From an uncultured Spirochaetota bacterium (GTDB taxonomy: Bacteria; Spirochaetota; Spirochaetia; SZUA-6; Fen-1364), in assembly GCA_963781885.1 (NCBI GenBank), contig CAWAHW010000003.1, positions 96,001 through 160,000 on the forward strand: 64,000 nucleotides of DNA, given 5' to 3'. This document shows positions 23,380 through 52,983 of the stretch, piece after piece (the stretch's first letter is position 1; each line of letters starts with the position of its first letter). The notes under the pieces are model-generated. The model saw only the letters and a list, made by a program, of their open reading frames with translations. It was not told where the DNA came from and made no database searches. The position numbers and the translations under genes were made by a program.

Positions 23380-23397
23380 AAGGGAGGAGACATTCCG

Positions 23398-29943: not shown

Positions 29944-29978
29944 ATGACCGTACGGCTCTGAAAGGAAGGAGGCGCAGC

Positions 29979-31469: not shown

Positions 31470-31484
31470 AAAGGAGGACGCGTC

Positions 31485-32333: not shown

Positions 32334-32353
32334 CAATTGAAGGAGGCAGAGAG

Positions 32354-33379: not shown

Positions 33380-33399
33380 AATCCAGAGAGGAGGGCTCG

Positions 33400-37879: not shown

Positions 37880-39280
37880 TCACTTCTTTTCTACCGCCGC
37901 GCGCGCAGCGACGAACGCCCTGACCGACCTCTCGACGTCATCCCCCGCGGTCGCGTAGGAGCAGACGCTGATGCGGATTGCGGGTGCGCCGTTCCATGTC
38001 GTCCCTCCGCACCAGCATTCACCCGACGCCTGGATTCGTGAAAGGGTCGCCTGGGTGAGCTCAGGCGTCGCGCAAGCCGCAAGAACCTGGTTGAAGACAA
38101 CATCGTTCAGGATCGTGAAGCCCTCCCGGGAGAGCAGGCGGGCGAAGAGCTTCGCCATGCTGTGCAGTTCCTCCACGAGAGCGGCCGCGCCGGACCTGCC
38201 CAGGGACATGAGGGTGGCCCACAGATCCACCGCACGGGCGCGGCGGGACATGTCGGGGACGTAGAGCATCTCGTCGCGGTTCTCTCCATACTCGACATAC
38301 GCCGCCGAGGCGCGCATGGCGTTCACGAGCGCGTCCCTGTCCCGGCAGAAGACGATCCCATTGTCGTAAGGGGCATTGAGGGTCTTGTGTGCGTCGGTGG
38401 ACCAGGAGTCCGCGAGTGCCGCGCCTTCGGTCAGATGGCGCAGGCGGGGGGAACCCGACGCCCAGAGTCCGAAGGCGCCATCGACGTGCACCCATGCGCC
38501 TGCCGCGCGCGCTGGGGGGATGATGGCGGTGAAGGGATCAAAGGCGCCCGTGTTCACGTTCCCCGCCTGGAGAATGAGGAGGGTCCGCGCATCCAGGACG
38601 GGCATGCGGGATGGGTCCATCCTGCCGTGCGCGTCCACGGGAACGAGCTCCACCCGGTCCCGGCCGAGGCCGAGGAGGCCCAGGGCCCTGAAGACGCTCA
38701 TGTGCGCCTGCGTGCCCAGGACCACACGGATCTCAGGAGCACCGATCAGCCCCCTGCCGCCGCAATCCCATCCAGCGCGGCGGAGGAGCTCGTCACGCCC
38801 GGCGGCCAGGCCGCAGAGTGTGGCCATCGACGTGCCCCCCACCAGTCCGGCCACCGTCCCGGGAGGCAGACCGAGCAGGTCCACGAGCCACCTCTCACAG
38901 GCGGACTCCAGATGGGCGGCGATGGGGGACATCACGTACAGCGCGGCGTTCTGATCCCACGCATCCGCGATCCATTTGGCGGCAATAGCGCCCGGGAGGC
39001 TTCCACCGTTCACGAAGCCGAAATACCGCCCACCCGTCGTGGCCGCGGTTGCGGGAGAGCCGTGCCGATGGAGCAGATCCACGATACGTGACGGCTCCGT
39101 CGGATCTTCCGGCAAGGCCGCGGGGAGCACGGCAAGCCCCTTGAGAGCGGCGGCGTCCGGCACGACGCGCATCTCCCTTGCGCCGGCCGCATACTCGGCG
39201 GCGCAGGCGCTGGCGTGGTCGAGCAAACGCGTGTCCCGCGCCTGCTCCCGCAATGTCCGTAGAATCTGCTGTGATTCCAT
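37880..39280 (-). CDS. Group II PLP-dependent amino acid decarboxylase
   Basis: RYFGFVNGG, AGNVNTG, WVHVDGAFG, SWSTDAHK (PLP Lys), SRRAR; GGAGG upstream of MESQQ. Confidence 0.92.
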   Translation of the reverse strand: MESQQILRTLREQARDTRLLDHASACAAEYAAGAREMRVVPDAAALKGLAVLPAALPEDPTEPSRIVDLLHRHGSPATAATTGGRYFGFVNGGSLPGAIAAKWIADAWDQNAALYVMSPIAAHLESACERWLVDLLGLPPGTVAGLVGGTSMATLCGLAAGRDELLRRAGWDCGGRGLIGAPEIRVVLGTQAHMSVFRALGLLGLGRDRVELVPVDAHGRMDPSRMPVLDARTLLILQAGNVNTGAFDPFTAIIPPARAAGAWVHVDGAFGLWASGSPRLRHLTEGAALADSWSTDAHKTLNAPYDNGIVFCRDRDALVNAMRASAAYVEYGENRDEMLYVPDMSRRARAVDLWATLMSLGRSGAAALVEELHSMAKLFARLLSREGFTILNDVVFNQVLAACATPELTQATLSRIQASGECWCGGTTWNGAPAIRISVCSYATAGDDVERSVRAFVAARAAVEKK

Positions 39281-39370
39281 CTCCGCCTCCTGGTCTCCGG
39301 GGGGCGCGTCGCGTTGACAGCCGTGTCTGGCCGGGCGCCCCGGGGGGATGCACGAACGGTAGCCCTGGAA

Positions 39371-39409
39371 AATGTATGCAGTCAATACTATACTTGTCTG
39401 CAATACATT
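39371..39409. promoter_or_regulatory. Imperfect inverted repeat, candidate MocR-type operator
   Basis: AATGTATGCAGTCAA...TTGTCTGCAATACATT in the AT-rich divergent gap. Confidence 0.6.
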
Positions 39410-40807
39410 ATGAATGCAATGACTACATCCTGGAAGCCGGCAAGCCTCAATGACGACCTTCCCCTTTACCGCGCCATTGCCGAGGCTCTTGCCGGGGATA
39501 TCTCCTCGGGGAGGCTTCGTCCGGGGCAACGGCTCCCCTCCCAGAGACGGCTTGCCGCCCTGATCGGCGTGGACCTGAGCACCGTCACACGCGCCCTTGC
39601 CGAATGCCAGAGGCGCGGCCTCATTCAGTGCACCGTGGGACGCGGGACCTTCGTCACGGCGGACGGGGGTGCGCCCCTTGCCCTGGCGCGCGTGGAGCAG
39701 GCGTCCCGGGCGCCACTCATTGAGATGGGCCATGTGCTGCCTCTCTATGACCAGGAGAAGACGGGCAGGGATGCAATCCGCCGCTTCCTTCCCGCTCTGG
39801 ATCTGGAGCGATGTTTACGCTACACGGACCCCGAGGGCATGCGCAGGCATCGGGAAGCGGGCGCGGCATGGGTGAAGCGCGCGGGGGTCGCGGTGCGGCC
39901 GGAGAACGTGCTTGTGACCGCGGGTTCGCAGAATGCCATTGCCTGCTGCCTGCTGGCGCTCTTCAAGCCGGGGGATTCCATTGCCGTTGACGAGCTCACT
40001 TTCACCGGCCTCAAGGCCATAGCGCGGATGCAGGATATCCGGCTGATCCCAGTCGAGATGGATGACCATGGCATGCTCCCCGACGCATTGGAGAGGGCCT
40101 GCCGGCGCGAGCACCCGCGTGGGCTCTACCTCATGCCGGATTTTCAGAACCCCACGACCTCGGCGCTGCCGGAGGATCGGAGGAGTGAAATTGCCCGGCT
40201 CATCGAGCTGCACGATCTCATATTCATCGAGGATGACGCCTACGGACACACGGTGGGACGCCACACGGCGCTCAGCGCGCGTGTCCCCGAGCGGGGGATC
40301 TACCTTGGGGGGACCTCGAAGCTCTTCGGCGCCGGGTTGCGCATCTCATTCGTGGCCTGTCCGGCCCGCTTCGTCGCACAAATGGGGGGCGCCGTTCTCG
40401 GCACGGTGTGGATGGCCTCTCCGCTGAACGCGGAGCTCATGACGCGGATCATCACGGGCGGCCATGCTGAGCGGATCATCACCGCCAAGCGGGCGGAGGC
40501 GCGCGCGCGGACCGTGATGGCCCAACGGAAACTGGCGCCGTACCGTCTGCATGCGCGCGAATCCGGTTTCTCCGCATGGCTCGCCCTTCCGTCGGGCTGG
40601 ACGGGACGTGATTTCGAGCTCTCCGCGCGGGACGTGGGGGTCCGGGTATTCGCGGCTGAGAGGTTTGCCATTGGCGGCAGGGCGGCGCCCGCCGCGGCGC
40701 GGATCTCGCTCACGGGGCCGGAGACGAGGGAGGAATTGTCCCACGGCTTGGATATACTGGCGGATGTGCTCGCCCGGGGACGTGTCTCTTCCTCCGCCAT
40801 CCTGTAG
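39410..40807 (+). CDS. MocR/GabR-type regulator (GntR HTH plus PLP aminotransferase domain)
   Basis: PLYRAIA...LPSQRRLA...GRGTFV, QNPT, IEDDAY, TSKLFGAGLR. Confidence 0.93.
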   Translation: MNAMTTSWKPASLNDDLPLYRAIAEALAGDISSGRLRPGQRLPSQRRLAALIGVDLSTVTRALAECQRRGLIQCTVGRGTFVTADGGAPLALARVEQASRAPLIEMGHVLPLYDQEKTGRDAIRRFLPALDLERCLRYTDPEGMRRHREAGAAWVKRAGVAVRPENVLVTAGSQNAIACCLLALFKPGDSIAVDELTFTGLKAIARMQDIRLIPVEMDDHGMLPDALERACRREHPRGLYLMPDFQNPTTSALPEDRRSEIARLIELHDLIFIEDDAYGHTVGRHTALSARVPERGIYLGGTSKLFGAGLRISFVACPARFVAQMGGAVLGTVWMASPLNAELMTRIITGGHAERIITAKRAEARARTVMAQRKLAPYRLHARESGFSAWLALPSGWTGRDFELSARDVGVRVFAAERFAIGGRAAPAAARISLTGPETREELSHGLDILADVLARGRVSSSAIL

Positions 40808-40856
40808 CCCACGGTGGATGTTCGGCCTCAGAGCTCCCCTCCGCTTTGGCCCGGGC

Positions 40857-41996
40857 TCATCCGCGGTAGGATCGCCGGTAGGCGCCGGGCGTTGCACCCT
40901 GGACTTTACCAAAAGTGGAATAGAAACGCGGGGCGCTGGCGAAGCCGGTTTCTGCCGCGATGGCGGCGATCGTGAGGGTCGTGTCCCGAAGCAGCCGGCG
41001 CGCCTCGTCGATCCGCCTGCGGACGATCTCCTGGTGGATGCTGCGGCCCAGCGTGCTCCGAAACCTTTTCTCCAGCGTCCGCCGCGAGCACGGGATTGAC
41101 ACGAGGAGCTGCGCGACGGTGAGCCGTCCCGCCGCGGCACCGTGTATCGCTGCCAGTGCACGGTCCACCAGTGCGTCTCCCGTGGCGAGCGCCCGGGTGG
41201 ACTCGCGTTCCACCACTTCGCGCGGGGCAACGACGGCCGGCTCGGAGGGGCCGGGCCGGCCGTCCAGCAGGGCGGCCAGGGCCTCCGCCGCCTCCCACCC
41301 GATGCGTTCCAGGTCCAGCGCGATGCTGGAAAGGGGCGGCACCGACAGCTCGCAGAGGATATCTTCGTTGTCCACCCCCAGGATGGCGAGATCCGACGGA
41401 ACGTGCAGGCCCAGCCGCCGGCAGGCGGCCGCCGCCTTCAGTCCCACCGTGTCGTTGCAGGCGAAAAGGGCGGCGGGCGGGGGGAGGGCGGCAAGCCACC
41501 GGTCGAAACGCTCCGAGTGATGAAGCTTCTCCCACCAGTCCAGGGGCTGCTCGAACACGGAGAGGCGGGCAGGTCCGACCGCCTCGCGAAAGGCCTCGCG
41601 TCGTGCCCGCGACCATCCCACGCGCGCCACGCCGCAGAAGGCGAAGCCGCGTCGCCCCAGCGCCTTCATGTGGCGGCCGGCGAGACGGCCCGTGGCGCGG
41701 TCGTCGTTGCTGACCTGGCGGAACCCCGGACGGAGCCACGCGCCGGCAACGTCCACCACCGGGATCCCGCGCGCGGCGAGGCGGTCCGCGTCGCGGCGGG
41801 ATTCGATGCGCGCGATGATCCCGTCCCCGTCCCAGCGCTCCAGGGATCCCATCGCCTGGAACATCCACCCGAAGCCGTACAGGTCCCAGTCCGGCCGGCC
41901 GCGGGCGTAGCGCACGACCCCCCGCGCCACCCCGTGCTCGTAGTGGTCGATGAGACCCATGAACAGGCCGACCCGCTTTCGTCGATGCGCCCGCAT
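40857..41996 (-). CDS. XylR-type regulator (periplasmic-binding-protein fold plus AraC HTH)
   Basis: DGIIAR, FACND, VPSDLAILGVDNE, LSSI, RRTLEKRFR, IAAETGF...F....G.TP..YR. Confidence 0.92.
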   Translation of the reverse strand: MRAHRRKRVGLFMGLIDHYEHGVARGVVRYARGRPDWDLYGFGWMFQAMGSLERWDGDGIIARIESRRDADRLAARGIPVVDVAGAWLRPGFRQVSNDDRATGRLAGRHMKALGRRGFAFCGVARVGWSRARREAFREAVGPARLSVFEQPLDWWEKLHHSERFDRWLAALPPPAALFACNDTVGLKAAAACRRLGLHVPSDLAILGVDNEDILCELSVPPLSSIALDLERIGWEAAEALAALLDGRPGPSEPAVVAPREVVERESTRALATGDALVDRALAAIHGAAAGRLTVAQLLVSIPCSRRTLEKRFRSTLGRSIHQEIVRRRIDEARRLLRDTTLTIAAIAAETGFASAPRFYSTFGKVQGATPGAYRRSYRG

Positions 41997-42008
41997 GATC
42001 ATCCCTTT

Positions 42009-42070
42009 CGTAAAACGTTATAAAGTATACGCATTTCGGGCATCCCGGGAACGGGCCGGCGGCTTATGAT
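42009..42070 (+). promoter_or_regulatory. Candidate AraC/XylR tandem site and -10 element
   Basis: CGTAAAACG-N12-CGCATTTCG (21-bp period); TATGAT at 42065. Confidence 0.45.
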
Positions 42071-42089
42071 GAGGATGTGGAGGAACCGC

Positions 42090-43097
42090 ATGGAGAAGAA
42101 TGACCTGATCACAGTGGCCGGTGCGGGCGGGTTCATCGCCGGCTCGCTCGTCCGCTATTTCCACGACAAGGGATTCACCCGGATCCGCGCCGTGGACAAG
42201 AAGCCCCTCACGGAATGGTACCAGCGCACGCCCGGCGTGGAAAGCCTCAGCCTCGACCTGAGCGATCCCGATAATTGCCGGCGCGCCGTGGAGGGTGCCG
42301 CCGAGGTGTACAACCTGGCCGCGGACATGGGGGGCATGGGCTTCATCGAGCGTCACCGCGTGGACTGCCTTCGAAGCGTGCTGATCAACACGCACATGGT
42401 CGAGGCCGCCTGGCGCGCGGGGGCGCAGCGCTACTTCTTCTCATCCTCGGCCTGCGCGTACAACACCGATCTGCAGAAGGACCCGAAGGTACGGGCGCTG
42501 AAGGAGTCCGACGCCTATCCCGCGATGGCGGAGCGGGGTTACGGCTGGGAGAAGCTGATCTCGGAGATGTTCTGCCAGGAGTACACGGCGGAACGGGGCT
42601 TGTCGACGTTCATCGCGCGGTTTCACAACGTCTACGGTCCCAACGGCACGTGGGACGGGGGCCGTGAGAAGGCGCCCGCGGCGTTGTGCCGCAAGGTCAT
42701 CGAGGCCAAGGACGCCGGTGCGAAGGAGATCACGATCTGGGGAGACGGGACGCAGACGCGCAGCTTCATGTATATCGACGACTGCACGAAGGGCATCGAC
42801 CAGATCATGCACTGTGAGAAGCTGCTGGCCACCCCCATCAACCTCGGCTCATCCGAGCTTGTCTCCATCAATGAGCTGGCGACACTGGCGGAGAAGATCG
42901 GGGGCGTGAAGCTCACGCGGCGCTATGATCCCACCGCGCCTCGGGGCGTGGCCGGGCGCAACAGCGACAACACGATGATCCACTCCATCCTGGGCTGGGA
43001 GCCGAACACGCCGCTTTCGGACGGGCTGGCAAAGACCTACCACTGGATCGAGCAGCAGTACCGGGACAAGAAGTCAGGCAAGCGGACAGTGAGCTGA
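42090..43097 (+). CDS. GDP-mannose 3,5-epimerase-like NAD-dependent epimerase
   Basis: GAGGFIA, GME-type LAADMGGMGFI, SSSACAY (catalytic Cys), YGWEK, RFHNVYGP, GGREKAPAALCRK. Confidence 0.85.
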   Translation: MEKNDLITVAGAGGFIAGSLVRYFHDKGFTRIRAVDKKPLTEWYQRTPGVESLSLDLSDPDNCRRAVEGAAEVYNLAADMGGMGFIERHRVDCLRSVLINTHMVEAAWRAGAQRYFFSSSACAYNTDLQKDPKVRALKESDAYPAMAERGYGWEKLISEMFCQEYTAERGLSTFIARFHNVYGPNGTWDGGREKAPAALCRKVIEAKDAGAKEITIWGDGTQTRSFMYIDDCTKGIDQIMHCEKLLATPINLGSSELVSINELATLAEKIGGVKLTRRYDPTAPRGVAGRNSDNTMIHSILGWEPNTPLSDGLAKTYHWIEQQYRDKKSGKRTVS

Positions 43098-43102
43098 CCG
43101 GC

Positions 43103-43900
43103 ATGGGGCATGATCTGCGCACGGTCATCGGGCCGATCCCCTATCGCATGGCATTCGCGGGCGGCTGGATCGACCAACCATTCGTCTCCCGGCTGAACCC
43201 GCAGCCGCCGGGCTCCATGGTGACGGTGGCGGTTGAGCCGACATTTCGATGGATGGATCGCTGCGGCATGGCCACCTCCACGCGCACGGTGGCCATGCGC
43301 CACTGGGGCGGGCGGATGCCGGACGGGGACCCCGCCCGTCTGGTTCGGGAGCTGTATGACGCGGAGAATCGGGGCAAGGCCGAGCCGTCCGGATCCCAGG
43401 ACATGGTCGGACTGCTCTATCCCGGCGTGTGCCGGCTTGACTATGACGCATCCGTGGAGGGCGGCGTGTTCCCGAGCGCCGTGGAGAGTTGCTCGTCGCC
43501 CGAGGTGGCGCGGTGGCTGGAGCGGATCATCAAGGTGCTGCCCGTGGCCCCGAGGCCGGCGGGCTACGAGCCGCTGGCGGTCAAGAACCTGGACCCGGCG
43601 TGGATCGCGCGGCTGGGGAGATCGGGACGCTCCTGCTGGGAGGCGATCCTGGCGATGGACGCCGCCGCGCTGGGTGAGTCGATGAACGAGTGCATGCGAT
43701 GCTGGGAAGCGCTGCTGCCCCTCGTGGTACGGCCGCCGGAATCGCCCGTCGACCTGGCAGGGCTCCTGCGCTGCTACCAGGAGCGCTCTCACGGGGCGAT
43801 GTACTCGGGATGCGGCGGGGGCTACCTGTACATCGTGAGTGAGGAGGCGGTCCCGGGCACTTTCGGCGTGCAGGTCCGCACCCGGAGCGCCGGGGGGTGA
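43103..43900 (+). CDS. Divergent GHMP-family sugar kinase
   Basis: PYRMAFAGGWIDQ (motif 1), CGMATST (motif 2 variant), SGSQD, SGCGGG (motif 3). Confidence 0.7.
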   Translation: MGHDLRTVIGPIPYRMAFAGGWIDQPFVSRLNPQPPGSMVTVAVEPTFRWMDRCGMATSTRTVAMRHWGGRMPDGDPARLVRELYDAENRGKAEPSGSQDMVGLLYPGVCRLDYDASVEGGVFPSAVESCSSPEVARWLERIIKVLPVAPRPAGYEPLAVKNLDPAWIARLGRSGRSCWEAILAMDAAALGESMNECMRCWEALLPLVVRPPESPVDLAGLLRCYQERSHGAMYSGCGGGYLYIVSEEAVPGTFGVQVRTRSAGG

Positions 43901-44721
43901 GCGTGCGCACGGTATTTGTGACGGGGGCATTCGACGACCTGGGAGCCCGCCACGCGCGCCTGCTGCACGAGTGCTCGCGGATCGGCGAGGTCGTGGTCGG
44001 GCTGTGGTCGGATGCGGCGGTATCCGCGGCGTCCGGTACGCCGCCGAAGTTCACGTTTGCCGAACGGCGCTATCTCCTGGAGTCGCTGCGTTTCGTCGCC
44101 CGCGTCATTCCCGTCGAAAACCACCGGCAGCCGGAGCTGTCGCGGGAGGGGGCCGCCGCGCCCGTGGTGGGCTGTGACGTCGGCGCATCTTCCGCGGAAT
44201 CAGTCGCCGCCCGCGCGGCGGCCGGGGCGCTCCACGCCGACCTGCGCACGTTCGGGGACGTGGAGCTGGCGGGGTTTCCGGACATCCCGGTCTCCCCTCC
44301 CGATCCGTCGCGGCGGCGGGTGGTCGTCACCGGATGCTTTGACTGGCTTCATTCCGGGCATGTCCGGTTCTTCGAGGAAGTGGCGGGCCATGGAGAGCTG
44401 TACGTCGTCGTCGGTCATGATGCGAACGTGAGGCTCCTCAAGGGCGAAGGCCATCCTCGATTCTCCCAGGACCACCGCCGCTACATGGCGGGCAGCATCC
44501 GCCACGTCCACCAGGCACTCATCTCCTCGGGATCGGGATGGATGGACGCCGAGCCGGAAATCGCCGCCATCGGCGCGCAGGTCTACGCGGTGAACGAGGA
44601 CGGCGACAAGCCCGAGAAGCGAGAGTTCTGCCGCACGCACGGCCTGGAATACCTTGTGCTCAAACGGGTGCCAGCGGCGGGGCTGCCGCGCCGGTCCAGC
44701 ACCGACTTGCGTGGCTTTTAG
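43897..44721 (+). CDS. Tandem HxGH nucleotidyltransferase (cytidylyltransferase-like); first domain degenerate
   Basis: TGAFDDLGARH...FAERRYL and TGCFDWLHSGH...RRYM...RSSTDLR. Confidence 0.82.
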   Translation: MSVRTVFVTGAFDDLGARHARLLHECSRIGEVVVGLWSDAAVSAASGTPPKFTFAERRYLLESLRFVARVIPVENHRQPELSREGAAAPVVGCDVGASSAESVAARAAAGALHADLRTFGDVELAGFPDIPVSPPDPSRRRVVVTGCFDWLHSGHVRFFEEVAGHGELYVVVGHDANVRLLKGEGHPRFSQDHRRYMAGSIRHVHQALISSGSGWMDAEPEIAAIGAQVYAVNEDGDKPEKREFCRTHGLEYLVLKRVPAAGLPRRSSTDLRGF

Positions 44722-44781
44722 CGGCCTCTCCGTGGCGCTCCGGTATCTGCCCGCGCCGGCGCGGGTTCCGCGCGCGAGTGC

Positions 44782-44811
44782 CGGAAATCGAACGTTTTGT
44801 GACGTATTCTC
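44782..44811 (+). promoter_or_regulatory. Second candidate AraC/XylR tandem site upstream of the ABC importer
   Basis: CGGAAATCG-N12-CGTATTCTC, same 21-bp period as the 42009 site. Confidence 0.4.
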
Positions 44812-44864
44812 GATTGTGTTCGCTCCGGGCCCGTGCCTACATGGGCGGTGAGCAGGTCCCCCTC

Positions 44865-46421
44865 ATGCAAGAGATAATTCTCGAGGTCGAAAACGTTTCC
44901 AAGAGCTTTCCCGGCGTGAAAGCGCTTGACCAGGTCTCGTTCGATCTCCACAAGGGCGAGGTCCATGCCCTGGTGGGGGAAAACGGGGCGGGCAAGTCGA
45001 CGCTCATGAAGATACTTTCCGGCGTGCACCAGCCGGACGAAGGTGTCATCCGCTTCAAGGGACGCGAAGTGCGTTTCCACGATTCCACCCAGGCACGGGA
45101 TGCCGGCATCGGGATCATCTACCAGGAGCTCAACCTTATTCCCCACCTGTCGGTGGCTGCCAACATCTTCATCGGCAGGGAGCCGCTCACGCGGCTTTTC
45201 ACCCTGAACGAAAAGAAAATGAATGAAGACGCCGTCGCCATCCTGGGGCGGCTGAATATCCGGATCGACCCGACAATCAAGCTGAATCGGCTCCCGATCT
45301 CCAAGCAGCAGATGGTGGAAATCGCGAAGTCCCTCTCGTTCGATTCGGAAGTGCTCATCATGGATGAGCCGACCAGCGCGCTTACCGAATCGGAGATTGA
45401 CGAGCTGTTCACCGTCATCCATACGCTTCGCGACCGTGGGGTCGCGATCATCTACATCTCCCATCGCCTGGAAGAGCTGAAGCATATCGTGGACCGCATC
45501 TCCATCTTCCGCGACGGTCGCTCCGTCAGCACGGACGTGTACTCCGCGATCACAATGGACACCATCGTCAACCGGATGGTGGGCCGGACCCTGGAGCAGA
45601 AGTTCCCCGCGCGGCACAACGTGCCCACGGAGGAGAAGATCCTCGACGTCAGAGGCATCACGCGCAAGGGCGTCCTGCACGACATCTCCTTCGACCTGTA
45701 CCGCGGCGAGATCCTCGGCTTTGCCGGGCTCATGGGCGCCGGCCGCTCCGAGCTGGCGCGGGCAATCTTCGGCGCAGACCCCATCGACGCGGGAACCGTG
45801 ACGATGAACGGGAAGAAGCTCACGTCGCTCACCCCCTCGGAATCGATCCGGGCGGGAATCGCCTATCTCTCGGAAAACCGCAAGCAGGAAGGGCTCGCGG
45901 TGAGGATGAAGGTGGCGGAGAACGTCTCCATGGCCAACATGGCCGGTGTGACCAGCCGCATGGGTGTGATCTCGCGCCGCCGCGAGCTGCAGGCGTGCCA
46001 GCGGTACGTGGATGAGCTGGCCATCCGCACCCCGAGCCTCATGCAGGTCGTCAACAACCTCTCCGGCGGGAACCAGCAGAAGGTCGTCGTGGCCAAGTGG
46101 CTCTTCTGCGATTCGAAGGTCCTCATCTTCGACGAGCCGACCCGGGGAATCGACGTCGGCACCAAGTTCGCCATTTACGAGCTGATCGAGCGGCTGGCCC
46201 GGGAGGGGGTCGGGGTCATCATGATTTCCTCGGAGCTCCCCGAAATCCTGGGAATGACCGACCGCGTCCTCGTGCTGCACGAGGGCAGCCTTGAAGCCAC
46301 CCTGGTGACGAAGAATACGACACAAGAGGAAATCCTCAACTTTGCGGCGGGTCTGGGCGGGAGGGCCGAAAGGCCTTTGAATGGCCAGTCACGCCCGGCG
46401 GAAGAGAGAACCCAACCATGA
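44865..46421 (+). CDS. Monosaccharide ABC transporter ATP-binding protein (RbsA-like)
   Basis: GENGAGKST, MDEPT, LSGGNQQK, DEPTRGIDVG. Confidence 0.96.
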   Translation: MQEIILEVENVSKSFPGVKALDQVSFDLHKGEVHALVGENGAGKSTLMKILSGVHQPDEGVIRFKGREVRFHDSTQARDAGIGIIYQELNLIPHLSVAANIFIGREPLTRLFTLNEKKMNEDAVAILGRLNIRIDPTIKLNRLPISKQQMVEIAKSLSFDSEVLIMDEPTSALTESEIDELFTVIHTLRDRGVAIIYISHRLEELKHIVDRISIFRDGRSVSTDVYSAITMDTIVNRMVGRTLEQKFPARHNVPTEEKILDVRGITRKGVLHDISFDLYRGEILGFAGLMGAGRSELARAIFGADPIDAGTVTMNGKKLTSLTPSESIRAGIAYLSENRKQEGLAVRMKVAENVSMANMAGVTSRMGVISRRRELQACQRYVDELAIRTPSLMQVVNNLSGGNQQKVVVAKWLFCDSKVLIFDEPTRGIDVGTKFAIYELIERLAREGVGVIMISSELPEILGMTDRVLVLHEGSLEATLVTKNTTQEEILNFAAGLGGRAERPLNGQSRPAEERTQP

Positions 46422-47422
46422 GCGACACCCACGCACCACGCAAAGACCCGAGGGGCCACGACCCGGCCGCTGCTCCCGGACGATCCCGGATGGCGGTGGA
46501 CAGGTTCCTCACGTTCGGCGCGGTGGTCGTGCTGTTCGGCGTGTTTTCAATCACGGCGAAGAACTTTTTCACCATGCGCAACGTCCTGAGTCTCCTCCTG
46601 CAGACCAGCACGACCACTCTCATGGGAATCGGCGTGACATTCACCATCATCACCGCCGGCATCGACCTTTCCATCGGTTCGGTGGTCGCCTTTACCGGCA
46701 CGGTCGCGGTGATGGCCGCCATCGCCGGGGTCCCGATCTGGATCAGCTGGATAATCGGCCTGGTGGTCGGGGCCTTCTGCGGCTTCCTGAACGGTCTCAT
46801 GATCACCGGGCTGAAGCTCCCGCCGTTCATCGCCACCCTGGGCATGACCTTCGTCGTCCGAGGCGTGGCGCTCACGATCACCAACGCCAACGCGTGGCCC
46901 GCGCCGGATGCGTTCGGCGCGCTGGGCAACAACACGCTCTTCCGCACCGGGCCCAAGTTCCCCGGCATTCCCTACCCCGTCATCGTCATGGCAGTTGTTG
47001 CCGTGCTTTTCCATTTCATCCTCCGCAAAATGCGCGTCGGCAGATACACGTACGCGGTCGGTTCGAATGAAGAGGCGGCCCGGCTTTCCGGCATCAAGGT
47101 CGGCCGCATCAAGATCATCAACTACATCATCTGCTCGACACTCGCCGGCCTGGTCGGCGTCATTCTCGCTTCCCGCATGGTCACCTCGCAGCCCAACAGC
47201 GCAAGCGGATACGAGCTGAATGCCATCGCCTCCGCGGTCATCGGCGGCACGAGCCTCATGGGCGGCGTCGGCACGGTGGGGGGAACGGTGATCGGCTCGT
47301 TCATCATCGGCATCATGACGGTGGGGCTCACCATGCAGGGCACGAACTATTTCATGCAGCAGATCGTGATCGGCGTCGTGGTGATCCTGGCCGTGGCCTT
47401 CGATCAGAGACGCAACAAATAG
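46418..47422 (+). CDS. Monosaccharide ABC permease (RbsC-like)
   Basis: GIDLSIG, PPFIATLG, NEEAARLSGI, YELNAIASAVIGGTS. Confidence 0.95.
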   Translation: MSDTHAPRKDPRGHDPAAAPGRSRMAVDRFLTFGAVVVLFGVFSITAKNFFTMRNVLSLLLQTSTTTLMGIGVTFTIITAGIDLSIGSVVAFTGTVAVMAAIAGVPIWISWIIGLVVGAFCGFLNGLMITGLKLPPFIATLGMTFVVRGVALTITNANAWPAPDAFGALGNNTLFRTGPKFPGIPYPVIVMAVVAVLFHFILRKMRVGRYTYAVGSNEEAARLSGIKVGRIKIINYIICSTLAGLVGVILASRMVTSQPNSASGYELNAIASAVIGGTSLMGGVGTVGGTVIGSFIIGIMTVGLTMQGTNYFMQQIVIGVVVILAVAFDQRRNK

Positions 47423-47425
47423 GAG

Positions 47426-47471
47426 TCATTGCGACAGCAATGAGAAATACCGCGACCCGTATGGGCCGCGG
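47426..47471 (+). other. Two tandem RNA hairpins before the binding-protein gene
   Basis: TCATTGC-GACA-GCAATGA and CCGCGACCC-GTAT-GGGCCGCGG, just upstream of AAGGAGGT. Confidence 0.45.
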
Positions 47472-47492
47472 AGTTGGTTCAAGGAGGTCGGT

Positions 47493-48453
47493 ATGAAGAA
47501 GCTTCTTTTCATTCTCGTGGCGCTCGCCTTCATCGCCGGATTCGCGTCCGCGCAGGAAATCGCGGTGATCGTGAAAACGGGCAACTCCAGCTACTGGCAG
47601 AACGTCCAGACCGGGTGCTTCGACGCACAGAAAGAGCTGAAGGCAAAAACCCCGAAGCTGTCGGTGACGTTCCTCGGGCCCCAGTCGGAGAGCAACATCG
47701 CGGAAGAAATCAACATCGTCGAGAGCGCGATTGACCGTGGCGTGAAGGCGATCGTCCTTGCGCCGTCGGATGTCACCGCCCTTGTGCCGGCCGTGAAGAA
47801 GGCCAAGGATGCCGGCATCCCGGTCATCGTCATTGACTCGCTGCTGAGCGGTCCCACTTCCAACTACGTCTCCTTCCTCGCCACCGACAACGACGCGGCG
47901 GGAAGGGCGTGCGCGAAGGAAATGATCGACCGGGTGAAGGCAGCCACCGGCAGTGACAGCGGGAACATCGCCGTCATGTCGTATGTCGCCGGCGTTGGCT
48001 CGGAGATTGGCCGCGTGGGCGGCTTCAAGGATTACATCGCGAAGAACTCGCACCTCAAGATCGTGACCACGCAGTACTCCAATGCCGATATGCCGACCGC
48101 GCTCAACCAGACCACCAACGTCCTCGCGGCGAACCCCGACCTCGTGGGAATCTTCGGGGCCAACGAGCCGACGGCCGTCGGCATGGGCCGCGCCATCGCG
48201 CAGGCAGGTCTCGCGGGCAAGATCGTTGCCATCGGGTTCGACGGGAACGCCGCCCTCCAGGGCTTCATCAAGGACGGGACCATTCAGGCAATCGCGGTGC
48301 AGAGCTCTTACAACATGGGGTACCTCGGAGTGAAGTCCGCGTACGACGCCGCTTTCGCCAAGAAGAAGATCCCCGCGACAGTCGATACCGGGTTCATCAT
48401 CGTGACCAAGGACAACATCGACTCCACGGCCGCCAAGAACGTCCTGTACCTAG
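47493..48453 (+). CDS. Monosaccharide ABC substrate-binding protein; stop displaced by one extra C
   Basis: Signal peptide, IAVIVK...YWQ, ATDN, GFDG. It ends KNVLY then C-TAG (48451-48453); as read it extends to 48548. Confidence 0.9.
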
Positions 48454-48575
48454 ACCGGGCCATTTTCTGCGACCGCCCTTGTTCTCCTTCGCGAGGGCGG
48501 TCGCTCCTTTCTCCACCTGGCAGGCAGGCCCGCTTTTGGTTATCCTGAGCGCGGTGAAAGAACGGCGCGTGACAT

Positions 48576-50189
48576 ATGTACAGGTTCCTGATGGTGGACG
48601 ACGAAGAAATCGTCCGCCGCGGCTTCCGACGCAAGATAGACTGGGCCAGCCTCGATTTCGAGTTCCTCGAGCCGTGTGAGAACGGGGAGCAGGCCATCGA
48701 GGCCATCGGGGCACTCCATCCCGATGCCGTCATGACGGATATCGCCATGCCCCACGTGGACGGGCTGGACGTCGCTGCCTGGGCCGCGGAGCACCACCCC
48801 GAAATCGTCATTTTGATTCTCTCGGGGTACGACGAGTTCGAATACGCCCAGAGGGCAATCAAGAGCAACGTCTTCGAATATGTGCTCAAGCCGGTAACCT
48901 CCCGGGATCTCACCGCACTGCTCGAAAGGCTGAAGGTGCGGCTGGATCACCTCCGGCGTTCCCGCGAGGAAACGAAGTCACTCGAGCTGCGGGCGGAAGC
49001 CGCATCGAGCTTTCTGAAGGCGCGGACCCTCCTCGACCTCGTGAGCGGCGCGGCGGACAAGATTCCCGATTCCCGGTTCCAGGAGGTCTTTGGCTTCCCG
49101 CCGCAGGGCCTGGCCGGTGCCGTGGTGATTGCGCAAGATGATCCCGCCGGCGAGGGAGAGCTCGACGTCTCGACCCGACTCCCGGCAGCGGCGGCGGAGG
49201 TAGCCGGCTCGGCCCGCCGCGTGTTCTGCTTTTCTCCCGGTGAAGGGCGGGAGGCCATCCTGATCCTGGAGCAGGATACCCTCTCCTGCGACCGCCTGGC
49301 TTCCGCGATCGCCGCACGGGCGGCGGCCCCCGTCGGCCCGGCGCCGTCCGCGGTTCGCGTTCCGATCGTCGGAATGGGTCGGCCGTACGAATCGTGGCGT
49401 GACGCGGCCCGAAGCTTCGCGGAGGCGGTCGCCGCCCTTTCCTACAGGCTCGTTTCGCCGCCGGGGGGAGTCTTTCGCTACGGGAGGGAGCGGGAGGACG
49501 ACCCGCAGACCCTCGAAGGTCTTGCCGAACAGCGAGAGCGCACCTGCCGCGCCACGGTCGCCGGTGAGACGGTGGAAGCGGAAAACCATTCAGCCGCTTT
49601 CGCGGCGCTGCTGCGGGAGGGCGGCATCTCTGCCCACCGCGTGCGGCACGAGATCGAGGCGCTGTTTGCCGCCGTCCTGGACGCGTTGCGGGACCTTGGC
49701 GTCTCCTCGTCAGCCGTGGCCCAGGACCTCCGGCTGGACCCCGATCTCGCCGTGCAGCGACTGCGCACGTCAGAGGACGTGACGGCGCTCCTCGTGCGGT
49801 TGGCGACCTACGCGGGCTCGATCCTCGATGGGCGCAACCTTCCCGCCCCGGAATGGAAGGTGCGCGACTTCAAGGACTACGTGGCCCGGCACTATGGGGA
49901 GCGGGCGCTCTCGGTGCAGACCATCGCCGCGAGCCTCTCCATCAGCGCGAGCTACCTCTCCAAGCTGATCAAGCGCCACCTGGACCGAAGTGTGGTAGAC
50001 TATCTCATCGACTACCGCATGGAGCGCGCCAAGGAGCTTCTCTCAACCTCCGACCTGATGACGTACGAGATCGCGGAAGCAACGGGCTACCCTGACGCGC
50101 AGTACTTCAGCACCGTGTTCAAGCGGCACATCGGGATCACCCCGACGGAGTTCCGGGCCCGGCGGAGAGGCAAGATCTCGCGCCCATGA
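48576..50189 (+). CDS. YesN-type response regulator (receiver plus AraC)
   Basis: VDDE, TDIAMP, LSGYDEFEYA, YVLKP, C-terminal AraC HTH. Confidence 0.93.
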   Translation: MYRFLMVDDEEIVRRGFRRKIDWASLDFEFLEPCENGEQAIEAIGALHPDAVMTDIAMPHVDGLDVAAWAAEHHPEIVILILSGYDEFEYAQRAIKSNVFEYVLKPVTSRDLTALLERLKVRLDHLRRSREETKSLELRAEAASSFLKARTLLDLVSGAADKIPDSRFQEVFGFPPQGLAGAVVIAQDDPAGEGELDVSTRLPAAAAEVAGSARRVFCFSPGEGREAILILEQDTLSCDRLASAIAARAAAPVGPAPSAVRVPIVGMGRPYESWRDAARSFAEAVAALSYRLVSPPGGVFRYGREREDDPQTLEGLAEQRERTCRATVAGETVEAENHSAAFAALLREGGISAHRVRHEIEALFAAVLDALRDLGVSSSAVAQDLRLDPDLAVQRLRTSEDVTALLVRLATYAGSILDGRNLPAPEWKVRDFKDYVARHYGERALSVQTIAASLSISASYLSKLIKRHLDRSVVDYLIDYRMERAKELLSTSDLMTYEIAEATGYPDAQYFSTVFKRHIGITPTEFRARRRGKISRP

Positions 50190-51937
50190 AGATCCGCCGC
50201 ATCCAGGACACCCTGATCCGCGCCATCGCCACACTCATCGTGGTCGCCCTGGTCCTGCTTGGGACGCTGTCGTACTACTACCTTCACAAGATCCTCATCC
50301 AGAACGCGGAGGAAGGGACGATGCAGCTGGTGAGCCAGCTGAACCGCATCATCGAGAACTACATCAGCTACATGGACGACATCGCCCTGATGGCCATCAA
50401 CAACACGGACGTGAGGGAGTTCATGTCACGCCCTCGCGCGGATTCTCCCCAGCTGCGCGCGAAGATCGAAGCCACGTTCGAGTCCCTCCGGGCCGTCCGC
50501 CGCGACATCGATTCCGTGTTCGTCATCACCCGGGACGGGCGCGCCATCGCCGCGACCACCGGGCGCGCGTTGAATCCCACGGTGGACCTCCGGCAGCGGT
50601 TCCTGGAGCTGGAGGCCGGGGTCGTTCCGGACCGGCCGTCGGTGTCTTCCGCCCACGTGGAAAACCTCGTGGATTACCGTTATCCCTGGGTGATCTCCCT
50701 GGTTCGCGTCTTGCCGGTCGGACCCGGAGAGCAGAGCCCCGGGCTCATCCAGGTGGACCTCAACTACGACATCATTGCGCGCCTGTGCAAGGACATCCAG
50801 CTGGGCACCTCCGGGTACGTTTTCATCCTGAGCCGCGGCGGAGACATCGTGTATCACCCGCGGCAGCAGCTCATCTACGGGAACCTCAAGTCGGAGCGGA
50901 TCGCGGAAATCATGGCCCTCCATGGCGGGAACCTCAACGCCGTGGTGGACGGCCGGGCGATCCTCTACACCGTTGTGAGCTCGAAGGACACGGGCTGGGA
51001 CGTCGTTGCCGTCTCCTACCTGGACGAGCTGTTCCGCGCCAGCCGGCAGGCGGAGTACGTCTTCCTCATGCTCTCGCTGCTCGTCCTCGTCGGGGCCATC
51101 GCCGCCGCAATGGCGATCTCGTCGAACATCTCCCGGCCGATCGAGAGCCTGCGGCACTCGATGCAGGCCGTGGAGAGCGGCAACTTCGACATCGACATCA
51201 CCGTCAATGCGCGCAACGAAATGTACCAGCTCGCGCGGGATTGCGACATCGCGGTGAAGAAGGTGCGCGACCTCATCGAGCAGAACCGCCGCGAGCAGGA
51301 GATCAAGCGGAAGCTGGAGCTGCGGGCGCTGCAGGCGCAGATCAACCCCCATTTCCTCTACAACACGCTGGACTCGATCATCTGGATGATCGAGCTCGGC
51401 GAAACCGAGCGGGCCATCGACATGACCTCCTCCCTGGCCCGGTTCTTCCGCATCGGAATCAGCCGCGGAGAGGAGACCATCAGCGTCCGCACGGAGATGG
51501 AGTACATGCAGACGTACCTGGAGATCCAGAAGCAGCGCTACAAGGACAAGCTCTCCTATGAGATCGCCTTCTCGCCGGATCTCTACGATTCCCAGATCCT
51601 CAAGCTCCTTCTGCAGCCGCTGGTGGAGAACGCCATTTACCATGGGATCAAGAACATCGCGGGGCCCGGGCTCATCCGGATTGACGGCGTGCGCGACGGG
51701 GAGTCAATGGTGATCCGCATCAGCGACAACGGCGTGGGGATGGCTCCCGATCAGCTCGCGGCGCTCCGCGAGGGGGTGATCGAGCCCCGTCCGACCAACG
51801 GCGTGGGGGTGCGCAACGTGCAGGAACGCATTCACGTCTACTTCGGGCTGGAGTACGGCGTGAGCTTCGAGAGCACGCCCGGGGCCGGTACGGTGGCAAC
51901 GGTCCGCATCCCGGTGAGCGCGGGGAGCGCAACGTGA
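50186..51937 (+). CDS. YesM-type sensor histidine kinase (Cache/HAMP)
   Basis: LQAQINPHFLYNTL, LQPLVENAIYHG, DNGVG. Confidence 0.95.
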   Translation: MKIRRIQDTLIRAIATLIVVALVLLGTLSYYYLHKILIQNAEEGTMQLVSQLNRIIENYISYMDDIALMAINNTDVREFMSRPRADSPQLRAKIEATFESLRAVRRDIDSVFVITRDGRAIAATTGRALNPTVDLRQRFLELEAGVVPDRPSVSSAHVENLVDYRYPWVISLVRVLPVGPGEQSPGLIQVDLNYDIIARLCKDIQLGTSGYVFILSRGGDIVYHPRQQLIYGNLKSERIAEIMALHGGNLNAVVDGRAILYTVVSSKDTGWDVVAVSYLDELFRASRQAEYVFLMLSLLVLVGAIAAAMAISSNISRPIESLRHSMQAVESGNFDIDITVNARNEMYQLARDCDIAVKKVRDLIEQNRREQEIKRKLELRALQAQINPHFLYNTLDSIIWMIELGETERAIDMTSSLARFFRIGISRGEETISVRTEMEYMQTYLEIQKQRYKDKLSYEIAFSPDLYDSQILKLLLQPLVENAIYHGIKNIAGPGLIRIDGVRDGESMVIRISDNGVGMAPDQLAALREGVIEPRPTNGVGVRNVQERIHVYFGLEYGVSFESTPGAGTVATVRIPVSAGSAT

Positions 51938-52926
51938 GGAGCCGGTCCGTCCTGTTCCTGCTCGCGGCGGCGGTCCTTGCCGCCGCTTCGCTCACCATCC
52001 TGTACCACGGGGCTCGTCTTCTCAACCCCGTCTCCGCCGCGACACGACGTGTGATCGTCATCTTCAAGACCGTCGACTACCGCACCACGCCGTTCTGGGG
52101 CAACGTGCGGGATGGCGTGGTGTCCGCCGGCGAGGACCTGGGCATGACGGTGCAGATTCGGGGACCGACCCTCGAAACCGACATCGCGGGCCAGATCGAC
52201 ATCGTGCGCCAGGCCATTCGTGAAAAGCCCGACGCCATTGTCCTGGCCGCCGCGGACTACAACCTGCTCGTGCCGTTGGCGCGGGAGATCAAGCGCCAGG
52301 GCATCCCCCTTGTCTGCATAGACTCATTCATCAATTCCGATGATGCCGACACGCGGATCGGCACGGACAGCTACGAGGGCGGCCAGAAATGCGCGGCGGC
52401 CCTGATGCGCTATGTGAAGCCCGGCGACCTGGTCGCGGTCATGAGCTACGTGAAGGGCAGCTCGACGGCCATCGACCGCGAGTCCGGAACCCGTGACTAC
52501 CTGGACGGCAAGGTCAGGATCCTCGACACGCTGTACAGCAACGCGGATGCAAAGCTCGCCTATTCCCAGGCGGCCCGATTGATCGCCGATACTCCGCAGC
52601 TTCGCGGGATCGTCGCATTGAACGACCCCACCGCCAGCGGGGCGGCCCGCGCCCTGGATGAATCGGGCAAGGCAGGCTCCATCGCGCTCGTCGGCTTCGA
52701 CAATTCACTCCTGGTGCTGCGCGATGTGGAGAGGGGCATCATCCGCGACACCGTTGTGCAGAAGCCGTTCAACATGGGGTACCTCGGGATCACGACGGCG
52801 CGGGACCTCATCATGCGCCGCAAGCCCGCAAAGTTCATCAACACGGGCTCGGTCGACATCTCCCGGCTCAACATGTTCCAGCCGGAGAACCAGAAGCTGC
52901 TATTTCCCGTCACCGAAGGACAGTAG
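51934..52926 (+). CDS. Sugar-binding periplasmic protein, probably a sensory partner of the kinase
   Basis: N-terminal anchor, PFW, GTDS, VGFD, VVQKPFNMGY; overlaps the kinase stop (GTGA). Confidence 0.88.
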   Translation: MRSRSVLFLLAAAVLAAASLTILYHGARLLNPVSAATRRVIVIFKTVDYRTTPFWGNVRDGVVSAGEDLGMTVQIRGPTLETDIAGQIDIVRQAIREKPDAIVLAAADYNLLVPLAREIKRQGIPLVCIDSFINSDDADTRIGTDSYEGGQKCAAALMRYVKPGDLVAVMSYVKGSSTAIDRESGTRDYLDGKVRILDTLYSNADAKLAYSQAARLIADTPQLRGIVALNDPTASGAARALDESGKAGSIALVGFDNSLLVLRDVERGIIRDTVVQKPFNMGYLGITTARDLIMRRKPAKFINTGSVDISRLNMFQPENQKLLFPVTEGQ

Positions 52927-52983
52927 CCGCGGCCCCGGCCGCCCTGCCCGTGCGCAAAAACCCCGCCATGCTATACTCCCTCC

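Follow-up and report, generated by a model that had tools for sequence, protein, structure and literature searches.

What does a bacterial GDP-mannose 3,5-epimerase (GM35E, also called GME) do when its gene stands behind a divergent sugar-responsive regulator and ahead of a monosaccharide importer? We addressed this question for a locus of an uncultured Spirochaetota bacterium, in which the epimerase gene is followed directly by genes for a small GHMP-type kinase and a nucleotidyltransferase. The window analysed is a stretch of 64,000 nucleotides (positions 96,001 to 160,000 of contig CAWAHW010000003.1, assembly GCA_963781885.1), and all coordinates refer to it. We lean slightly towards the reading that this locus, with similar gene trios in many phyla, serves a non-oxidative, Leloir/Isselbacher-like use of L-galactose via GDP-sugars. 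The CUT2 ATP-binding cassette (ABC) importer would take up free L-galactose, the compact kinase would phosphorylate it at C1 to beta-L-galactose-1-phosphate, and the C-terminal HxGH domain of the nucleotidyltransferase would convert this product and GTP to GDP-beta-L-galactose and pyrophosphate (PPi). The epimerase, running in its thermodynamically favoured direction, would then form GDP-alpha-D-mannose, from which the pyrophosphorylase ManC would free mannose-1-phosphate while regenerating GTP. Phosphomannomutase (PMM) and phosphomannose isomerase (PMI) would lead from mannose-1-phosphate through mannose-6-phosphate to fructose-6-phosphate. GTP and PPi would be recycled between the HxGH transferase and ManC, for a net cost of one ATP, and the XylR-type regulator would switch on the enzyme genes in response to the sugar. 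For this pathway we infer which sugar and which nucleotide are used, which way flux runs and how the genes are regulated.

The three enzymes of the locus

The regulator, enzyme and importer genes are arranged as follows.

40857-42002, minus strand: XylR-type regulator, a periplasmic-binding-protein-like sugar sensor with an AraC helix-turn-helix domain, divergent from the enzyme genes
42066-43097, plus strand: GDP-mannose 3,5-epimerase, probable true start 42090, assigned by similarity to plant GME structures
43103-43900, plus strand: compact GHMP-fold sugar 1-kinase of 265 aa, predicted L-galactokinase (L-fucokinase-like) from profile, fold and sugar-site residues
43897-44721, plus strand: tandem cytidylyltransferase-fold nucleotidyltransferase, predicted GTP:beta-L-galactose-1-phosphate guanylyltransferase (PF01467, TIGR02199)
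44841-46421 (open reading frame, ORF, opens at 44538), plus strand: ABC importer ATPase of CUT2/RbsA type with two ATPase domains (NCBIfam RbsA)
46418-47422, plus strand: ABC importer permease of RbsC/AraH type (PF02653, NCBIfam RbsC)
47493-48548, plus strand: periplasmic monosaccharide-binding protein, predicted to bind L-galactose or L-fucose (Peripla_BP_4)

The epimerase ORF starts 63 nt from the regulator on the opposite strand, its stop lies 5 nt before the kinase start, and the GTG start of the nucleotidyltransferase and the kinase stop share 4 nt; roughly 120 nt lie between the nucleotidyltransferase gene and the likely start of the ATPase gene. An initial annotation had described a regulator divergent from three tightly coupled genes, then a monosaccharide ABC importer, with no glycosyltransferase, flippase or polymerase adjacent. 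All of these genes are present as described, and none of the three glycan-assembly types was found near the locus, the closest glycosyltransferase-like ORF (6306-7082) being 34 kb off. The annotation had ended the locus at 48453, which falls inside the binding-protein gene, 95 nt before its stop at 48548. GC content was 0.52-0.70 over the whole window and 0.62-0.70 across the locus. A promoter and terminator scan of 40500-53200 gave no promoter-like site, and its terminator-like sites were not above those in shuffled sequence. Among sequencing runs, none of RNA was listed for this DNA, and three DNA runs contained just 5-8% of its sequence words.

The epimerase matched Arabidopsis GME (2c59) with an E value of 1.3e-78 and an identity to plant GME of approximately 50%, read by eye on the alignment; GDP-fucose synthases were the next class among Protein Data Bank (PDB) sequences (1e-27). 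A GDP-fucose synthase model was also its best NCBIfam match, at 122 bits against a cut-off of 500. The ATG at 42090 is the likelier start because GGAGGA sits 5 nt before it. PMC8787198 defines GM35E by S143, Y174, K178, C145, K217, R306, R243 and N203, distinguishes it from GDP-fucose synthase by a Lys rather than His base and an Arg rather than Lys near the Cys, and also gives features separating it from GalE. We mapped these residues by hand on the 2c59 alignment (chain numbering is native plus 2). The Ser/Tyr/Lys triad of C4 oxidation and reduction (S128, Y159 and K163 for S143, Y174 and K178 of Arabidopsis), the Cys/Lys acid-base pair (C130 and K202 for C145 and K217), the Arg that acidifies the Cys (R298 for R306), and the diphosphate-binding Arg and conserved Asn (R232 and N188 for R243 and N203) were all kept. 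With eight of eight fingerprint residues, the enzyme is by sequence a bona fide GM35E, predicted to interconvert GDP-D-mannose and GDP-L-galactose, which bears out its earlier description as epimerase-like. Two other readings were rejected: for an ADP-heptose (HldE/HldD-like) function, the epimerase reached 43 bits on the heptose-epimerase model against a cut-off of 275 and carries the GM35E fingerprint; in a plant-like ascorbate route, the kinase has no place.

The single kinase sequence had no match in Pfam, NCBIfam or PDB sequences (phmmer). Its family is large, with at least 7,702 homologues among 8,000 scored candidates and 662 cluster representatives at 50% identity; no Pfam domain was found in the 120 homologues listed, and source names, where given, were "hypothetical protein". 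The Pfam GHMP_kinases_C domain was above cut-off in three of 20 relatives scanned, and not in the window kinase. A profile of 25 family members placed the L-fucokinase domain of Fkp (Bacteroides) first, with an E value of 3.4e-14, followed by heptose-phosphate kinases and mevalonate kinases. The AlphaFold2 model (pLDDT 92.3) contained the GHMP two-domain fold and matched mevalonate kinase (1vis), the heptokinase WcbL (4usk) and the Fkp fucokinase domain (9iip) at a Foldseek probability of 1.00 and TMq of 0.61-0.67. The enzyme had been annotated as a divergent GHMP kinase, and both profile and model agree with that assignment.

The residues that hold fucose-1-phosphate in Fkp are R592, W599, D601, T602, G759, Q761 and D762, according to PMC11982464. 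R592, W599, D601, G759, Q761 and D762 aligned with R15, W22, D24, G97, Q99 and D100 of the window kinase, which were invariant or at least 90% conserved in the 25-member alignment; T602 was replaced by Q25, and E88 corresponds to Fkp E751 by spacing only. The Gly-rich motif III reads SGCGGGY here and GAGGGGY in relatives. According to the same paper, Fkp requires the L-fucose configuration at C2-C5 and tolerates a changed C5 substituent, and L-galactose is among the sugars it converts, to GDP-L-galactose (PMC11982464 and PMC6678494). We predict from sequence and model that the window enzyme is a minimal fucokinase-like anomeric kinase. Its Fkp-like sugar-site residues, and the mutarotases that are fused to or lie beside members of the family, indirectly favour activity on free sugars. 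Within the genus of the window's genome the kinase was carried by 20 of 20 genomes, within the family by 23 of 24, and in other families of the order by two of 16; tblastn against 72,556 plasmid records gave no match.

In the nucleotidyltransferase, PF01467 scored 45.5 bits (cut-off 21), and this domain and TIGR02199 (rfaE domain II) covered residues 140-211 only. The best NCBIfam-type matches were heptose-1-phosphate adenylyltransferase domain II and glycerol-3-phosphate cytidylyltransferase, all below cut-offs. The model (pLDDT 87.5) superposed best on human CTP:phosphoethanolamine cytidylyltransferase (ECT; TMq 0.71), and its halves superposed on TagD and on the heptose-1-phosphate adenylyltransferase HldC. 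The C-terminal HxGH lies in CFDWLHSGH, with H152, G154 and H155 invariant in 20 sequences, and alignments of 49 and 20 orthologues gave the strongly conserved C-terminal stretches VVTGCFDWLHSGHVRFF, LKGEGHP, GWMDAEPE, VNEDGDK and RRSSTDLRGF. In the N-terminal domain the corresponding stretch is FDDLGARH, the first His and the Gly of HxGH being lost in all 49 and all 20 sequences; this domain is conserved despite the degenerate motif. The C-terminal domain is the predicted catalytic one; its N-terminal partner most likely stands in for the other subunit of a dimer. Of the "tandem HxGH" enzyme first annotated, the tandem cytidylyltransferase pair with an ECT-like fold stood, and the motif is confined to the C-terminal domain. 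An arrangement with both domains active, one per direction, was rejected, the N-terminal domain having no HxGH.

Related loci and the carrier nucleotide

Relatives were collected by a pattern scan with one genome per species, which confirmed at least 582 loci. The analysis was confined to the 80 best, and so to the closest orthologues, with kinases 57-91% identical to that of the window. They come from Spirochaetota, Chloroflexota, Verrucomicrobiota, Planctomycetota, Latescibacterota, Acidobacteriota, Armatimonadota and Lentisphaerota. Triad membership was determined by tblastn and ORF clustering. Of the 72 loci that offered 1.3 kb or more of sequence upstream of the kinase gene, 59 had the epimerase gene directly before it on the same strand; of the 78 that offered 1 kb or more downstream, 64 had the transferase gene directly after it. 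All three genes stood in the same order in 46 of the 70 with both flanks. A relaxed search recovered remnants in three apparent misses, of the epimerase in L033 and L014 and of the transferase in L063, and in all five genomes checked whose kinase and transferase have no epimerase beside them, an orthologue or part of one lay elsewhere: three were 78-79% identical, one was 61% identical and one was a fragment at a contig end. Epimerase identity across phyla was 70-92% in most loci, which is unusually high and suggests that the triad genes were transferred horizontally together.

Some details of individual loci were also recorded. A frameshift interrupts the epimerase gene of L033, and that of L014 is in fragments; the neighbouring kinase gene is intact in both loci, and either pseudogene formation or faulty long-read assembly could account for this. 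The Latescibacterota triads (L012, L024, L025, L028, L040, L044 and L060) have a pantothenate kinase or malate synthase gene on one side and are followed on the other by genes for a PcfJ-like protein of 511 aa and an AAT-family protein, and in L040 and L060 a C-5 DNA methylase gene and another gene are inserted between kinase and transferase.

The neighbours of the triads were counted within 4.5 kb. The labels are crude (our own ORF calls, with one Pfam-scanned representative per cluster), and ORFs at 2.5-4.5 kb were labelled only if they fell in an already scanned cluster.

ManC-type GDP-mannose pyrophosphorylase, mostly right after the transferase: 20 of 80 loci
LacI regulator, mostly heading the operon: 19 of 80
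Divergent AraC- or XylR-type regulator: 16 of 80
Other glycoside hydrolases, esterases or a sulfatase: 16 of 80
GH29 glycoside hydrolase: 15 of 80
FucU-type mutarotase: 9 of 80
ABC importer parts: 7 of 80
MFS or SSF carriers: 6 of 80
NUDIX hydrolase: 3 of 80
L-fucose isomerase: 2 of 80

In addition, L004 has a PMM gene after ManC, L008 a type I PMI gene between transferase and ManC, and L018 a RhaM mutarotase gene. At least one uptake- or catabolism-type neighbour was present in 62 of the 80 loci, and in 36 of the 49 with at least 3.5 kb on both sides. Among the 204 representatives scanned, which cover 238 neighbouring ORFs (170 aa or longer, no more than 2.5 kb from a triad), no glycosyltransferase family was detected (E <= 1e-10). 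Had the triads stood mainly in lipopolysaccharide (LPS) or capsule loci, the annotated sequence of import, 1-phosphorylation, nucleotidylation and 3,5-epimerisation to a D-manno NDP-sugar would have lost its ground; with no glycosyltransferase and a single Wzy_C neighbour, and with the three enzymes occurring together beside regulators and importers across genomes, it is supported, the direction of flux being our reading.

Fusions link the genes further. Among close kinase orthologues (58-66% identity), many are fused to the HxGH transferase, four (P0285, P0286, P0288 and P0295) to the epimerase, and one (P0272) to PF07959, the GDP-fucose pyrophosphorylase domain of Fkp type. The kinase-transferase and epimerase-kinase fusions link all three genes, and some of the kinase fusions could be gene-call artefacts. 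Of the distant relatives (30-45% identity), 12 of 20 scanned were fused to one or two cytidylyltransferase domains, 11 of them above cut-off, one relative was fused to a RhaM mutarotase and a cytidylyltransferase, and one to PNP_UDP_1. Across P0183, P0204, P0258, P0188 and P0298 the partners include GT2, a TcdA/TcdB-like glycosyltransferase, PNP_UDP_1 and RhaM mutarotase. One cytidylyltransferase-kinase fusion is eukaryotic: it belongs to Hondaea fermentalgiana and bears the annotation ethanolamine-phosphate cytidylyltransferase. Fusions of the kinase and nucleotidyltransferase had been anticipated in Bacteroidota; they exist, and the carriers named are Planctomycetota and this one eukaryote.

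Displacement of the transferase bears on the nucleotide. L069 has the order epimerase, Fkp-type fucose pyrophosphorylase (PF07959), FucU and kinase, and lacks an HxGH transferase. In five genomes where epimerase and kinase have no transferase beside them, no transferase orthologue was found genome-wide (best E 6e-11, a generic domain), and all five carried a strong PF07959 gene (E 1e-52 to 1e-64). PF07959 was found, weakly, in one of six transferase-bearing genomes, namely that of the window and five others (Fisher p 0.015 in a small, hand-picked sample). From this displacement, the PF07959 fusion and the adjacency of ManC we infer that GDP is the carrier and GTP the nucleotide.

Importer, sensor and candidate sugar

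The importer is a complete CUT2 system, with a fused double ATPase (NCBIfam RbsA 7e-174, also XylG and AraG), a BPD_transp_2 permease (PF02653 9e-44, NCBIfam RbsC 1e-71) and a Peripla_BP_4 binding protein (2e-60). The likely ATPase start is 44841, since family matches begin near residue 110 of the ORF from 44538. Specificity among ribose, xylose and allose was left unassigned because all importer NCBIfam scores were below equivalog cut-offs. Besides the window, the importer was coupled to triads in the Spirochaetota and Chloroflexota loci L002, L016, L021 and L072, with permease orthologues of 73-88% identity and binding-protein orthologues of 53-92% (79-92% in L002, L016 and L072).

It is very improbable, in our view, that the enzyme genes and the importer are unrelated and that the triad makes an ADP- or CDP-activated sugar (heptose-like, or a polyol phosphate) for an unknown product. 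The sub-threshold likeness of the transferase to the adenylyl- and cytidylyltransferases named above would fit such a function, as would the 120-nt gap before the ATPase gene and the lack of this importer in most related loci. The epimerase fingerprint is that of GDP-mannose epimerase and not of HldD, however, a GDP-fucose pyrophosphorylase domain substitutes for the transferase, and loci of both Chloroflexota and Spirochaetota have this importer, 73-92% identical, behind the triad.

The nearest solved binding protein was 4WUT (E 6e-101). In Proteobacteria, 62 plasmid or chromid records encode binding-protein orthologues (approximately 57-63% identity in the 20 listed). All five proteobacterial loci inspected (L084-L088) combine the same ABC system and a GntR regulator with an oxidative L-fucose/L-galactose-type cluster, comprising an aldose 1-dehydrogenase or aldo-keto reductase, a Zn-dehydrogenase, an altronate dehydratase, an amidohydrolase that scored best as L-fucono-1,5-lactonase (232 bits, under the cut-off of 400) and a mannitol-dehydrogenase-family protein that scored best as tagaturonate reductase (197 bits against 359). 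One of the five adds an L-fuconate dehydratase and a RhaM mutarotase. Such enzymes carry out the chemistry of oxidative L-galactose and L-fucose routes (PMC12632266). A single importer clade appears to serve an oxidative pathway in Proteobacteria and the triad in Spirochaetota and Chloroflexota, and its presence in the oxidative clusters, over five loci with sub-threshold scores, supports an L-galacto-configured ligand and a catabolic role. The concern that the importer might bind an unrelated sugar is raised by the D-fucose in 4WUT and answered in part by the five of five oxidative contexts, so that the balance is favourable; the physiological ligand of the 4WUT clade may have been mis-inferred from the crystal ligand.

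The glycosidases next to related triads bear on the sugar. The GH29 neighbour, represented by that of L064, was nearest to BpGH29 (7ljj/7lk7, and 7snk of the same protein; E 3e-87), the exo-alpha-L-galactosidase of the Bacteroides plebeius porphyran locus, with ordinary fucosidases at 1e-38 to 1e-57. According to PMC9774334, GH29 includes alpha-L-galactosidases, and Asp327 of BpGH29, a position held by Thr in the Thermotoga fucosidase, fixes O6 of L-galactose. This O6-binding Asp (WQTD motif) was kept in 15 of 20 GH29 ORFs, from 12 of 15 loci. The genome of the window (92.6% complete) has adjacent ManC and PMI genes, 84 kb upstream of the triad, as well as a PMM gene; it contains one distant GH29 and neither FucU nor PF07959. 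It also encodes an L-fucose isomerase, 73% identical to that of L052, which gives fucose its own route.

We consider it improbable that the same enzyme logic serves another sugar, whether L-fucose (GDP-L-fucose to GDP-6-deoxy-D-mannose), L-gulose or a D-galacto-configured 6-deoxy sugar. The kinase site sequence does not separate L-fucose from L-galactose, GH29 is mainly a fucosidase family, and FucU or FucI is present in some loci; the D-fucose of 4WUT and the formation of GDP-L-gulose by GME, reported in PMC6678494, point the same way. The L-fucose isomerase route is separate in both the window's genome and L052, however, and the GH29 neighbours keep the Asp of L-galactosidases. An Fkp-type site (PMC11982464) needs the L-galacto configuration at C2-C4, which is absent from L-gulose and D-fucose. 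A 6-deoxy product, moreover, could not become a 6-phosphate via phosphomannomutase, so ManC, PMM and PMI neighbours would be useless to it. L-galactose would be the only Fkp-type substrate whose GM35E product ManC, PMM and PMI can process. The initial annotation had proposed L-galactose, L-gulose or a related sugar, and the GH29 and fucokinase evidence narrows this to L-galactose over L-gulose.

The regulator combines Peripla_BP_3 (2e-34) and HTH_18 (4e-20) domains in Pfam, and matched PBP1_XylR at 5.8e-06 (26.9 bits, marginally below the cut-off of 27). Its orthologues occupy the same position in L002 and L003, at 86% and 67% identity. Downstream of the importer lie three further genes, assigned with Pfam.

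48576-50189, plus strand: AraC-type response regulator
50186-51937, plus strand: LytS/YesM-type histidine kinase with a dCache domain
51934-52926, plus strand: second binding protein, 34% identical to the transport binding protein

In L002, a response regulator, a histidine kinase and a second binding protein, each 83-92% identical to those of the window, likewise lie behind the importer. A similar layout is found in three-component sugar sensors controlling ABC importers. The genes at 48576-52926 are possibly an associated sugar sensor, placed in the pathway by position only.

Direction of flux and comparison with known systems

GME equilibrates at approximately 80% GDP-mannose (PMC6678494), which would pull a reaction starting from GDP-L-galactose in the catabolic direction. 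The opposite use of the same enzymes, a supply of GDP-L-galactose or GDP-L-fucose for glycans, in which kinase and transferase salvage the sugar, ManC and the epimerase form it de novo and glycosyltransferases are encoded elsewhere, is in our judgement unlikely, though it deserves the closest weighing. The adjacency of ManC, PMM and PMI is neutral as to direction, Fkp, a kinase of the same type, is a salvage enzyme, and bacterial GME is tied so far only to LPS or antibiotic synthesis (PMC6678494 and PMC8787198). Against glycan supply stand the scan of 204 neighbour representatives without a glycosyltransferase, the importers, GH29 enzymes and mutarotases of the loci, the ties of the binding-protein clade to catabolic clusters elsewhere, and an equilibrium that disfavours GDP-L-galactose (PMC6678494). 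Translational coupling of de novo and salvage enzymes under one LacI, AraC or XylR regulator is also hard to explain, because the two are alternative routes, whereas catabolism needs every gene.

Several observations weigh against catabolism of L-galactose by the triad. Motif II of GHMP kinases, the phosphate-binding loop, is of the Pro-x-Gly-Ser-Gly-Leu-Gly-Ser-Ser-Ala type, and the candidate motif II of the window kinase, GMATSTR, is atypical. To our knowledge, no sugar-1-phosphate guanylyltransferase belongs to the HxGH superfamily. Only seven of the 80 loci have an ABC importer and six an MFS or SSF carrier within 4.5 kb, and 18 have no recognisable catabolic neighbour, including all seven from Latescibacterota. 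Five loci have neighbours of glycan-synthesis type, namely Wzy_C on the opposite strand in L056 and an extra short-chain dehydrogenase/reductase (SDR) in four. The ManC, PMM and PMI neighbours would fit biosynthesis from fructose-6-phosphate to GDP-L-galactose equally well. Two distant kinase relatives (P0183 and P0204, approximately 40% identity) carry glycosyltransferase domains, and because of such fusions the wider kinase family would also serve glycan synthesis. Finally, 4WUT is one of eight PDB entries containing D-fucose (10.64898/2026.07.18.739369, a 2026 preprint). A function outside both catabolism and the three alternatives weighed here has, we think, a very small chance of being correct.

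The proposed route resembles the Leloir/Isselbacher pathway in its sequence of a GHMP kinase giving a hexose-1-phosphate, nucleotide transfer, an SDR epimerase, recycling of the nucleotide and a common hexose-1-phosphate left at the end. The Leloir pathway handles D-galactose on UDP with inversion at C4, whereas the proposed route would handle L-galactose on a predicted GDP carrier with inversion at C3 and C5, and its enzymes are not orthologous to GalK, GalT and GalE. Where the Leloir pathway has GalT exchange, the proposed route would use two pyrophosphorylases, the HxGH-fold enzyme inward and ManC outward, as in the Isselbacher variant; a GalT-type (HIT-fold) uridylyltransferase was absent from the window locus, the cluster representatives and the 204 neighbour representatives.

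Among solved structures, Fkp is nearest to the kinase and has its sugar-contacting residues in common with it. Fkp performs the chemistry proposed here, from sugar over sugar-1-phosphate to GDP-sugar; it accepts L-galactose in vitro (PMC11982464), and its pyrophosphorylase domain replaces the transferase in some loci. It differs as a salvage enzyme for fucosylation with no link to an epimerase, in its longer fucokinase-domain chain (9iip, 361-419 residues, against 265 aa for the window kinase) and in its pyrophosphorylase fold, in place of which the locus has an HxGH cytidylyltransferase-like enzyme. The window transferase has the tandem pseudo-dimer architecture of human ECT (3elb/4xsv; 18% identity), but has lost the N-terminal HxGH and has GTP and L-galactose-1-phosphate as predicted substrates; HldC and TagD resemble its single domains. 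HldC acts on a beta-configured sugar-1-phosphate.

The window epimerase has all catalytic and fingerprint residues in common with the GME of plants and of Methylacidiphilum fumariolicum. The known roles of GME are biosynthetic (ascorbate and cell walls in plants, and a proposed part in bacterial LPS), whereas the context here is predicted to be catabolic and sugar-inducible, with a direction that would be the reverse. Oxidative catabolism of L-galactose, as described for Luteolibacter LG18 and Bacteroides vulgatus (PMC12632266), has the same predicted substrate, and in Proteobacteria the same binding-protein clade accompanies this chemistry. The oxidative route runs from L-galactose to L-galactonate, D-tagaturonate and KDG and involves no phosphorylated or nucleotide sugars and no enzyme in common with the triad.

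In full-text literature, which covers few subscription journals, we found neither phosphorylative nor nucleotide-sugar catabolism of L-galactose, nor a paper that joins the kinase, a GDP-sugar and GME for catabolism. The L-galactose catabolism that we did find was oxidative only, in Luteolibacter in 2025 and in Bacteroides vulgatus as cited there (PMC12632266); the roles described for bacterial GME were biosynthetic, and Fkp was described in salvage. We put at about even the chance that the locus represents an unrecognised entry route for L-galactose, via GDP-L-galactose and a reversed GME, that has spread horizontally through at least eight phyla of soil, peat, sediment and digesters. The kinases would then be a new family of minimal GHMP L-galactokinases (240-270 aa, over 7,700 members, absent from Pfam), the transferase the first HxGH-fold hexose-1-phosphate guanylyltransferase, and the whole a non-oxidative counterpart of the oxidative pathway with a shared importer clade.

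If this is correct, a GDP-sugar and GDP-mannose 3,5-epimerase would be in catabolic use for the first time, and bacteria would have a second way, low in energy cost, to consume L-galactose. Functions would follow for a very large kinase family that lacks a Pfam model and is called "hypothetical protein" in every source that gives it a name, and for tandem "cytidylyltransferase family" proteins; the usual assignment of bacterial GME to LPS synthesis would need correction. L-galactose occurs in red-algal galactans, pectic rhamnogalacturonan II, some xyloglucans and invertebrate glycans, and would become worth tracking in the carbon turnover of peat, soil and digesters. For glyco-engineers, the three enzymes would form a compact link between L-galactose and either GDP-mannose or GDP-L-galactose, the latter being costly and in short supply (PMC6678494).

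Elsewhere in the window, a same-strand block at 24361-34305 resembles another uncharacterised sugar or amino-sugar utilisation cluster. It encodes two DUF6298 proteins, a DeoC/LacD aldolase, a D-serine-dehydratase-like pyridoxal phosphate (PLP) enzyme, an amidohydrolase, an FGGY kinase, a xylose-isomerase-like TIM-barrel protein and a GFO/IDH/MocA oxidoreductase. The adjoining segment at 18368-24096 has a GC content of 0.52-0.57, against 0.62-0.70 nearby, and four long ORFs without a Pfam match, and may be a foreign insert. At 37880-40807, a PLP-dependent decarboxylase gene on the minus strand and an ORF for a MocR-type GntR/aminotransferase regulator on the plus strand overlap by approximately 420 nt as called, the true start of the regulator probably being later; genes for an Asp/Glu racemase and a cytidylate-kinase-like/BON protein come next.

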